Origin: Pseudomonadota bacterium
GTDB lineage: Bacteria; Pseudomonadota; Gammaproteobacteria; Xanthomonadales; Rhodanobacteraceae
DNA length: 64,000 nt
NCBI GenBank assembly: GCA_029561145.1
Contig: JAKQJM010000115.1
Location: 2,162 to 66,161, forward strand
Reading direction: 5' to 3'
Shown piece by piece: positions 41,065 through 43,066 of the stretch. A program made the translations under genes and the position numbers. Numbering within the stretch: the first letter of the stretch is position 1; each line of letters starts with the position of its first letter. The notes beneath the pieces are model-generated. The model worked only from the letters and a program-made list of their open reading frames with translations, was not told the origin of the DNA and searched no databases.

Positions 41065-41336
41065 TGCGTTCGCATCCCCGCTGTCACGAGATGCGGCGAG
41101 TCCGGAAGCCGGTGAGTGCAATCCGCCTGGGGACGATGCCATCGCTGGCTGGATGTGGTGTTTTTTGTTTTCGTTTCCATTAAATGGCTTTTAATATTTG
41201 TCCGTGTCATTTGCCTGGGCAGCAGGTGCATGCATAATGGTCGGGCTCGCCCGGGCCAATGGCTTCCGTCAGCGAAGCTTCCGACCCGGTCGCAACGTTT
41301 TCGACCGGCCGCAGGCCAGTTACAGGGGAAGCAACC

Positions 41337-41693
41337 TTGAATGTCTTTGAGCGGTCCGTGAACGCCAGTCCGGACCGCTGCTTCTTCGCCATTGCATGCG
41401 CACGGTTCGCGATCGTGCTTGCGCTGGTCGGCAATCCCGTCAGTGCCGGCTTGCTGCCACTGCCAGACGACGCGCCATCGGGCAGCGGGAGTTTCGTGTT
41501 GACAGGCCACGTCATGGCCAATGGCGGCACTACGCGTGCGCGCAGTCCGTGCTTCGACCTCGCCGCGTCGATCGGACAGCCGGTCAGCGGGAGCACGCAA
41601 GGCGGAGCGTATTCGCTCTACGCCGGGTTCCTCGGTCCATCCAATCCCCACGATTCCATTTTTCGCAGCAGTTTCGAGGTGTGCCAGCCATGA
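41337..41693 (+). CDS. Small secreted protein with SIGQPxxG motif and C-terminal DxIFxxxFE motif
   Basis: Hydrophobic leader ending VSA; [24 protein letters not shown]; [13 protein letters not shown]; start uncertain (TTG 41337 or GTG 41358). Confidence 0.75.
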
Positions 41694-43066
41694 GAACCTT
41701 TTTCTTCGCGATCCTGTTCTTCATGGGCGCCATCGGCGGAAGTGCGCATGCGCAGACTGCCCAATTGCCGGACTTCACCTATCAGGGCCATCTTCAACAG
41801 AATGGACAGCCGTCCACCGGATTGTTTGATCTGGGATTTTCGTTGTACGACTCGGCCACCGGTGGCCTGCAGGTCGGAACGACGATTCTCGAACCCCAGT
41901 TCCCGGTGAGCGACGGGCTGTTCACGGTCAGCTTGAGTTTTCCTGGCGCGTTCACCGGGCAACAACGCTGGCTGCAGGTCAGCGTGAATGGTCAGCCGCT
42001 CCTGCCACGCCAGGCCGTTTCAACGGCACCGGTGGCGCAGTTCGCGCTCGATGGCAACCCGGGTCCACCCGGTGCGACAGGCGCCACCGGCGCGCAGGGT
42101 CAGCAAGGCGTGCCGGGTGCCACCGGATCCGCCGGACCGCAGGGCGAACCAGGCCCGCAAGGGCCGCAGGGCGTTCAGGGCGCTCCCGGTTCCACCGGTG
42201 CGCAGGGTCCGGCCGGATTGGAGGGGCCACAAGGCGAGCAAGGTCCTGCAGGACCGCAAGGCGAAACGGGGCCGGCCGGAACATCGTTTGCCGATGCGCC
42301 CGTCGATGGAAAGACCTATGCCCGAAAGAACAATGCCTGGATCGAGATCGACCCGACGTCGGGATTGCCCACCGTGCAGGCGGCGATCCTTGCCGACAAT
42401 CCAACGCTGTATTACCCGCTCGATGAAGCGCCTGGCTCCACGTCGTTTGTCGATCTGGGCTCGGCTGGCATCAATGTTGCGCTGAGTGGCGATGCGATAA
42501 CGCTCAAGCCCGGCTGGAGCCGTCTGTATCCGACCAGCGACGCGACCTACCTGCGCACCAATGAAGGCAATGGCAAGGCGAAGGCGATGGGCAACCCGAC
42601 CGGTACGGCGACTCCGAGCGGCTCGTTGAGCGTCGAGGCGATCTACAGTCCGCAGACCTTCGGTTCGGGCTATCAGCCGATCCTCGAGATCGGCGATGAC
42701 GCGCCCGAACTGCCATTTCTCTCGTTCGGCGTGATCGGATTGCAGCCGCGCATCGTCGTGGGCAACGGTGAACGTGTCGACCTTCCTGGACTCAATGCCG
42801 GACAGGCCTATCACATTGCCGCCGTCCTCGATGCATCGGTCAACGAAGTCCGCATGTATGTCAACGGGCGATTGCTCCAGGTGCAGTCATTGTTCGGCTA
42901 CGCGGGAACACTGGTCGCACCGACCGTGCATGTTGCCTCGCGTGCGGGTGCGGATCGTCCGTTCGTCTATTCCACGCTCGGCCACGTCGCGTTCTATTAC
43001 GGACAGGCGCTCTCCGTTGCGCAGATTTCAGCACACGCCAAGGCGGCGGGTCTTTACGGCCATTGA
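41690..43066 (+). CDS. Secreted collagen-like fibre protein: FTYQG domain, (Gly-X-Y)26, foldon-like motif, LamG/ConA-like head
   Basis: Signal peptide ending SAHA; FTYQGHL...; uninterrupted collagen; [16 protein letters not shown]; [14 protein letters not shown]...YHIAAV...RMYVNG. Confidence 0.88.
42053..42286 (+). repeat. Collagen Gly-X-Y repeat, 26 uninterrupted triplets
   Basis: GNP GPP GAT ... GET GPA GTS counted from the translation. Confidence 0.95.

Follow-up and report, generated by a model that had tools for sequence, protein, structure and literature searches.

How does an exported fibre that carries no sorting tag of its own reach its destination? This question is raised by a gene pair on the forward strand of contig JAKQJM010000115.1 (assembly GCA_029561145.1) from a gammaproteobacterium of the Rhodanobacteraceae, of which a stretch of 64,000 nucleotides (nt), hereafter the window, was analysed. 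The stop codon of a small gene and the start codon of the following fibre gene share the sequence ATGA (41690-41693). This coupling and the two open reading frames (ORFs) had been pointed out in a first-pass annotation and are present in the ORF calls and translations, as are the motifs quoted there: SIGQPxxG..GGxYxLxAGF in the small protein, and FTYQGHL, LFTVSL, RWLQVSV, and LLPRQ in the N-terminal domain (N-domain) of the fibre. Its statement that both proteins are secreted agrees with the Sec-type signal peptides that can be read by eye in each of them. The pair is likely to build an extracellular fibre of two parts. Regarding the role of the small protein, the reading preferred here, with a probability of roughly one half, is that of an adaptor that would bind the fibre base and supply a localisation tag in trans.

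Two uncurated domains encoded side by side

Neither the domain of the small protein (small domain) nor the N-domain reaches the threshold of any Pfam or NCBIfam family, and literature searches returned no paper describing either domain or the pair. Their genomic distribution was followed at several phylogenetic depths. The whole 3.6-Mb genome was searched with profiles and sequences, which yielded exactly four small domains and four N-domains, all arranged as adjacent same-strand pairs (on contig C66, that of the window, on C141, and two on C12). The small gene is located directly upstream of the fibre gene each time, and the ATGA overlap is present in three of the four. The 80 best N-domain loci, taken with one genome per species, all stem from organisms named as or consistent with Lysobacterales (Dokdonella, Tahibacter, Rhodanobacteraceae, Pseudofulvimonas, and Chiayiivirga, plus a few titled only Proteobacteria or Gammaproteobacteria). 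Enough upstream DNA was available for 79 of them, and in 71 a small-domain match lies 63-145 nt before the N-domain match, a gap equal to one signal peptide.

Within the window's family, 121 genomes from 30 genera were sampled. The small domain and the N-domain are found in an identical set of 25 genomes (5 of the 30 genera), the sole addition being a marginal small-domain match in G416 (E-value 1.3e-4). Sixty-three of the 83 N-domain matches have a small gene directly upstream, a further six have it in the vicinity, in five cases immediately downstream of the fibre gene, and 69 of the 70 small-domain matches adjoin an N-domain gene. The pairs are scattered, with 1-12 copies per genome. A 300-genome sample of the class contained a distant N-domain in five other genomes, two of which also encode the small domain on the same contigs. 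The small-domain profile gave two marginal extra matches in a 400-genome sample of the phylum, where 14 candidates per genome were scored at low sensitivity. Finally, eight distant small-domain proteins obtained by protein search were looked up. Six of their genes adjoin an N-domain gene, including one from the Pyrinomonadaceae (Acidobacteriota), the rest being from metagenome contigs, and one next to only a truncated N-domain start. Of the other two, one adjoins a gene for a Peptidase_S74 fibre that is interrupted where the contig ends, and one has no fibre neighbour. The order in distant lineages is mostly fibre gene, then small gene, often again with a 4-nt overlap.

The pairing is not due to chance, and profile matches place the uncharacterised pair in several bacterial phyla. 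The first-pass annotation had named such recurrence in unrelated bacteria. The counts given above for the own genome, the Lysobacterales loci, and the distant cases bear this out: the two families co-occur almost obligately and are often translationally coupled. The window contains what is proposed as the defining arrangement, a small-domain gene adjoining, on the same strand, a gene for a signal peptide followed by an FTYQG...PRQ beta-sandwich.

A particular fibre subtype without an upstream small gene was observed in five loci (L017, L024, L039, L044, and L056, with the N-domain at ~3001 in each). It combines collagen with a tail of the form ...VTLSFFYVP or TLVCVP and follows a large gene, which was read as TPR or kinase-like and whose reading frame exceeds 900 residues at three of these loci. 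In two genomes, this subtype is encoded 4.7 kb downstream of an ordinary small-plus-fibre pair.

A short C-terminal tag on the small protein

The small protein carries in its tail a motif that is frequent in this genome. A six-frame translation was searched for the pattern D-x-[ILVM]-[FLY]-x-x-[GSAN]-F-[ED], which occurs 79 times, 66 of them within 14 residues of a stop codon, compared with 0.35 expected from shuffling. The ~66 tagged frames encode mostly signal-peptide-bearing proteins of 113-1368 residues (a signal-peptide-like start is found in 50), and 18 of them end exactly at F-[DE]. They end in D-x-I-F-x-[DN]-G-F-[DE], with examples on contigs C105, C126, C141, and C92. Those tagged proteins that were tested resemble secreted enzymes or beta-propeller and DUF11 proteins. 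No NCBIfam or other curated model covers the D-x-I-F-x-x-G-F-E tail.

Small proteins and fibres differ in this respect. All four small proteins of the own genome are tagged and none of the four fibres is; among the 80 related loci, all 72 small proteins terminate in the tag or in a close variant, which is absent from the ends of all 74 complete fibres, whether paired or unpaired. With a tagged small partner and an untagged fibre, the adaptor idea takes a concrete form, namely delivery of the tag in trans. The link of the tag to a fibre gene is a new point.

The pair also depends phyletically on the tag. When the family sample was counted with a DNA pattern for the tag (the control count being zero everywhere), tag-rich genomes (3-130 hits) were confined to the genera g1, g288, g300, g291, and g294 and to two of the six genomes of g280, all others having 0-1 hits. 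All 25 pair-bearing genomes are tag-rich (16-130 hits), and the two tag-rich genomes of g280 are exactly the two with the pair. Because every pair-bearing genome is tag-rich while g294 has tags and no pair, the pair resembles a client of the tag system and not its machinery. The fibre N-domain as a receptor for the tag on all 66 proteins was also considered and is not favoured, g294 being tag-rich without any N-domain. In a few proteins, the motif stands directly after the predicted signal-peptide cleavage site (e.g. ...VVWAG/DHVFDSGFDH, the slash marking the site; C136:+123023, C147:+17643, and C111:+34682), so the tag may work at either mature end.

Outside the Lysobacterales, the position behind the small domain is occupied by other modules. 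A YLP-box motif reaching the NCBIfam cut-offs ends the small-domain proteins P0175 and P0178, a dockerin (Dockerin_1) follows in P0210 and in a neighbour in G133, and an FFRLxxP tail and, in Acidobacteriota, CarboxypepD_reg were found as well. The largest case is a 1281-residue protein of a distant gammaproteobacterium (G022, C335; L096 2143-5985), encoded just downstream of an N-domain fibre gene and composed of a signal peptide, one small domain, two LamG domains, CarboxypepD_reg, DUF11, and VWA. Given these varied modules, the N-terminal small domain is the constant element, followed by a slot for lineage-specific sorting, docking, or cargo modules. It is also an autonomous unit: it occurs in two or three tandem copies in P0210 and P0331, and its profile matches 5304 cluster representatives. 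Possible fusions of an N-domain-like region, a small domain, and a tag are seen in P0338 and P0312. A metagenome contig (L107, 31-4155) carries two tandem units, each with a fibre gene followed by a small gene, which indicates that duplication of the entire module happens in this lineage as well; the tail of its small proteins resembles a YLP-box ([IF]-L-L-P-L-V-L-R-Q), and one of them, P0179, gave no YLP-box match in NCBIfam.

The FxxGFE tail of the window's small protein takes the same position as the YLP-box (NF053834, NF050076) in P0175 and P0178, and no YLP-box ([IF]-Y-L-P-L-V-x-R) was found in it by the NCBIfam scan. Both kinds of tail lack the transmembrane helix and the basic tail of sortase and exosortase signals, and we know of no processing enzyme for either of them. 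Tripartite sorting signals such as LPXTG, PEP-CTERM, and GlyGly-CTERM are of a different type: the tag lies 0-14 residues from the stop codon, no hydrophobic segment follows, and no NCBIfam model matches.

Architecture of the two proteins and of the locus

The small domain comprises ~55 residues and the mature small protein only ~65. Neither a membrane anchor nor a lipid anchor is present in the small protein, which hence cannot by itself be the surface anchor. A lipoprotein anchor was considered and rejected, as a lipobox-like L-V-A-C occurs in a few homologues (P0006, P0007) and in none of the four local copies. Modelled alone with AlphaFold2, the small domain reaches a predicted local distance difference test (pLDDT) score of 51, too poor for a fold search; compared with the good model of the N-domain (86.5), this would be compatible with folding on binding. 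Among the orthologues, the small protein (51-56% identity) evolves faster than the N-domain (71-82%), and the ratio of nonsynonymous to synonymous substitution rates of the small gene is 0.34-0.57. Two cysteines, one in the CFDL of the second strand (codon 41547-41549) and one in the terminal C-x-P (41685-41687), are gained and lost together among the clades of the small protein. This covariation suggests a disulfide and thus an extracytoplasmic protein. Paralogue D has two cysteines around its tag instead; such differing placement suggests alternative disulfides.

The conserved N-domain of the fibre is 60-82% identical across Dokdonella, Tahibacter, and related genera. Its AlphaFold2 model contains six strands. 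Foldseek related this model to generic FN3, Ig, and MG-like folds only (best E-values 0.065 in the PDB and 0.028 in a viral structure library), and no match in either collection reached E ≤0.001. The stalk scores 54.1 bits with the Collagen family PF01391 (threshold 27.2) over residues 122-173 and matches in a second stretch. In the hairpin behind it, the foldon pattern A-P-x-D-G-x-x-Y-x-R-K-x-x-x-W is present, which in T4 fibritin marks the beta-hairpin propeller responsible for trimerisation, and phmmer aligned the hairpin to the T4 fibritin foldon in fusion constructs (E-value 0.0023; 0.1-0.4 for the bare 27-mers) and to PDB 8rk3 (DUF2793; 0.0072). Relatives of the fibre bear Peptidase_S74 or Tail Collar modules. 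The fibre is a probable trimer, judging from its collagen stalk and foldon-like clamp and from the S74 modules that relatives contain. The C-terminal tip of the window fibre scores 27.5 bits with Laminin_G_3 (PF13385), just below the cut-off of 27.6; the same family is precomputed on most orthologues. A LamG tip suggests binding to carbohydrates or surfaces.

Tips were classified by BLAST with the last 110 residues of those complete fibres among 75 pairs that were long enough to compare. Fourteen classes resulted, ~10 once likely frameshifted ends are discounted; examples are LamG, DUF7151, and a cysteine-containing beta-sandwich after AVTSSKI-type repeats. In 151 pairs of fibres, the N-domains are at least 70% identical and the tip classes differ. 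Tip exchange, as proposed in the first-pass annotation, is thereby observed. Wider relatives of the fibre end in pectin-lyase-like, beta-propeller, He_PIG, Tail Collar, or Peptidase_S74 parts. Taken as a whole, the module would be a trimeric fibre outside the cell that has a base for docking and a small partner; its two domain families are uncurated, and the sorting tag to which it is linked has not been described before.

The features of the locus are compiled in Table 1. The start of the small gene is ambiguous: apart from the reported TTG at 41337, a GTG at 41358, which yields a cleaner signal peptide, and an ATG at 41259 are candidates. The promoter consensus scan returned one site, against 0.4 expected. 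The genes flanking the pair are cellular (ABC_transp_aux, DUF4340, DUF423, penicillin amidase, and M35 peptidase), and none of them is a phage gene, as had been noted before. The two pairs on C12 lie 12 kb apart (L010; G000:C12, 1-16000). Large secreted proteins are encoded between them, i.e. a 798-residue repeat protein, an 875-residue M23-type peptidase, and a beta-propeller protein ending in LFADGFDPAQ, and a divergently transcribed OmpR-type/TPR regulator of 752 residues is found beside the first pair.

Table 1. Coordinates of the small-plus-fibre gene pair and its predicted parts within the window
Feature	Position	Strand	Basis or remark
Promoter-like site TTGCCT-16-CATAAT, 5' of the small gene	41211..41238	+	Consensus scan only; weak
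Small partner gene	41337..41693	+	ORF and translation; 118 aa counted from TTG 41337
Predicted Sec signal peptide of the small protein	41358..41447	+	Read from sequence; hydrophobic N-terminus in all aligned homologues
Small beta-rich domain	41478..41648	+	Three G-x-[YF]-x-L hairpin units; SIGQP..G..GG.Y.L.AGF
C-terminal tag DSIFRSSFE, then VCQP and stop	41652..41678	+	Genome-wide motif
Fibre gene	41690..43066	+	458 aa; start overlaps the stop of the small gene via ATGA
Fibre signal peptide, predicted (...GGSAHA/QTAQ)	41690..41752	+	Read from sequence
Conserved N-domain, six-strand beta-sandwich, ~100 residues	41753..42055	+	Homologues, AlphaFold2 model
Collagen-like Gly-X-Y stalk, ~25 triplets	42053..42280	+	PF01391, E-value 1.3e-14; PDB collagen matches
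Foldon-like hairpin directly after collagen	42290..42349	+	phmmer alignment
LamG/concanavalin-like C-terminal tip domain	42614..43030	+	PF13385

The adaptor proposal, its alternatives, and related systems

According to the preferred adaptor reading, both subunits would be exported via Sec and build a two-component fibre. The large subunit would be a probable trimer consisting of the Ig-like N-domain, the collagen stalk, the foldon-like clamp, and a LamG-type lectin-like tip, which may bind carbohydrates and mediate adhesion. The beta domain of the small subunit would bind the conserved N-domain, and its tail would give the fibre in trans the tag that the ~66 other exported proteins carry in cis. 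Thus equipped, the tag-less fibre could be delivered to, or held at, the place where tagged proteins go, i.e. across or onto the outer membrane. In evolution, the small gene and the N-domain would form a constant cassette, with stalks and tips being swapped. A wider version of this proposal is put forward more tentatively. In it, the small domain and the N-domain are an unrecognised docking pair spanning phyla, by which exchangeable trimeric fibres, or cargo of other kinds, would be attached to ultrashort C-terminal sorting tags that differ between lineages (FxxGFE in Lysobacterales and the YLP-box elsewhere).

Several points weigh against the adaptor reading. No small gene lies near 8 of the 79 Lysobacterales fibres and 14 of the 83 N-domain matches of the family sample (10-17%); these fibres are also untagged in cis, so the tag is not strictly required beside every fibre. 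The localisation role of the tag is itself something that we infer. The low pLDDT of the small domain may merely reflect a shallow alignment (58 sequences), and a correlation like that between the divergence of the small protein and of the N-domain (r 0.63, Mantel p 0.001) should arise with every pair of linked genes. The support from possible fusions is only moderate, hhalign giving a probability of 54% and an E-value of 1.3e-4 for the N-domain part. As for the first-pass annotation, its conserved adaptor-plus-fibre module finds support in the co-occurrence, the exchangeable tips, and the trimer hallmarks (the Gly-X-Y triplets with the foldon-like hairpin behind them, and S74 or Tail Collar parts in relatives), whereas docking of the N-domain on the small partner, surface location, and adhesin function are proposals.

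Other roles are conceivable for the small protein. It might be a dedicated assembly chaperone, comparable to the tail-fibre assembly proteins of phages, that aids trimerisation or export and is absent from the finished structure. Tight operon coupling with a likely 1:1 ratio, the phage-type trimerisation aids of fibre relatives (foldon-like hairpin, Peptidase_S74), and the poor structure of the small domain alone would suit such a helper. Yet the small protein shares its terminal tag with ~66 exported enzymes and adhesins, the small domain also occurs in tandem repeats, and elsewhere it carries dockerins, YLP-box motifs, and large cargo domains, features of exported or anchored proteins and not of a periplasmic helper; a chaperone is considered unlikely. 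Similarly little weight is given to a functional link without binding, i.e. co-secreted parts of one process (matrix building, capture of prey or substrate) or a small protein that modulates the fibre tip. Adjacency alone is no proof of contact, and the fraction of fibres without a small gene nearby and the faster evolution of the small protein are in line with such a link, but the conserved partners are precisely the small domain and the N-domain, and the cassette stays when the tip changes class. In addition, stop/start overlaps recur in both gene orders across phyla, and a possible fusion protein exists.

Two further alternatives start from recognisable resemblances. The small protein could be a pilin-like subunit akin to PamT, the predicted tip pilin of the Candidate Phyla Radiation, that uses strand exchange to form a filament or to cap one, the fibre being attached to it. 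Small-domain proteins repeatedly show weak matches to positions 27-83 of the PamT model NF058579 (E-values 1.4e-4 to 2.2e-8), corresponding to the first ~55 mature residues, the N-domain model has six strands, and the preprint on PamT mentions a tail-fibre-like gene co-localising with pam operons (PMC13278184). However, the scores of 21-34 bits (21.3 for the window protein, with paralogues alike) fall far short of the cut-off of 240, less than a quarter of the 241-residue PamT is covered, and the mature small protein has only ~65 residues. PamT belongs to a chaperone-containing operon, whereas no chaperone, usher, or Pam-like genes were found around the window pair or next to its three paralogous pairs. 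The resemblance is read as local similarity and not as membership, and a pilin-like role is regarded as improbable. Least credit of all is given to a prophage or tailocin remnant, in which a tail fibre and an accessory gene would have no cellular role. The fibre is matched by PHROG tail-fibre families, and foldon-like, Peptidase_S74, and Tail Collar modules occur in its family. The PHROG matches were rejected as a sign of phage origin, because the best stretches listed are confined almost entirely to the collagen repeat and its immediate surroundings (residues ~106-236). Both proteins have Sec signal peptides, the flanking genes are cellular, the copies are scattered over the genomes under purifying selection, and the N-domain lacks a specific match in the viral structure library.

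The adaptor reading can also be set beside known fibre and docking systems. The closest likeness is with BclA, which forms the collagen-like filaments of the Bacillus exosporium and is attached through its N-terminal region to the basal-layer proteins ExsFA/BxpB. Both systems comprise a collagen-like stalk, trimeric in BclA and probably so here, a globular C-terminal head, and a short conserved N-terminal part, which holds the fibre to a small partner in BclA and would do so here. Unlike BclA, the present system occurs in Gram-negative vegetative cells, exports both parts via Sec, and has a partner with a short terminal tag. The alignment with the BclA structure 1wck is restricted to the collagen-like repeat (residues 113-188, E-value 0.33), with no similarity outside Gly-X-Y, and the window fibre is not assigned to the BclA-type exosporium filaments, which are marked by an N-terminal targeting motif and a C1q-like C-terminal domain. 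Endospore appendages with collagen-like tip fibrillae are a further close analogue. Phage tail fibres and fibritin (T4 foldon, Peptidase_S74, Tail Collar) have stalk and tip modules and the logic of the trimer in common with the fibre family, and the foldon-like hairpin of the window fibre stands behind the collagen as in engineered collagen-foldon fusions; the window fibre differs in having a signal peptide and neither a virion attachment domain nor phage neighbours. Cohesin-dockerin (scaffoldin) systems likewise combine one constant binding module with interchangeable anchoring or cargo modules, and some small-domain proteins even bear Dockerin_1, but the proposed binding pair is unrelated to cohesin and dockerin, and the small protein of the window has no dockerin. 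The module thus belongs to none of the three, BclA-type filaments, phage fibres, or cohesin-dockerin adaptors.

Both domains are uncurated and yet widespread, with >5000 cluster representatives for the small domain and the pair in Gammaproteobacteria, Acidobacteriota, and other lineages. Should the adaptor reading hold true, it would explain how tag-less fibres reach their destination, and the orphan FxxGFE and YLP-box tags would gain a simple experimental handle of two genes. A new docking pair for protein display would then stand next to cohesin-dockerin. If the wider docking-pair version is true, the small protein would be the first trans-acting carrier of such orphan tags to be identified and a handle for finding the sorting machinery. 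Under the adaptor reading, moreover, collagen, foldon, and lectin architectures known from phages and spores would serve free-living Gram-negative bacteria.

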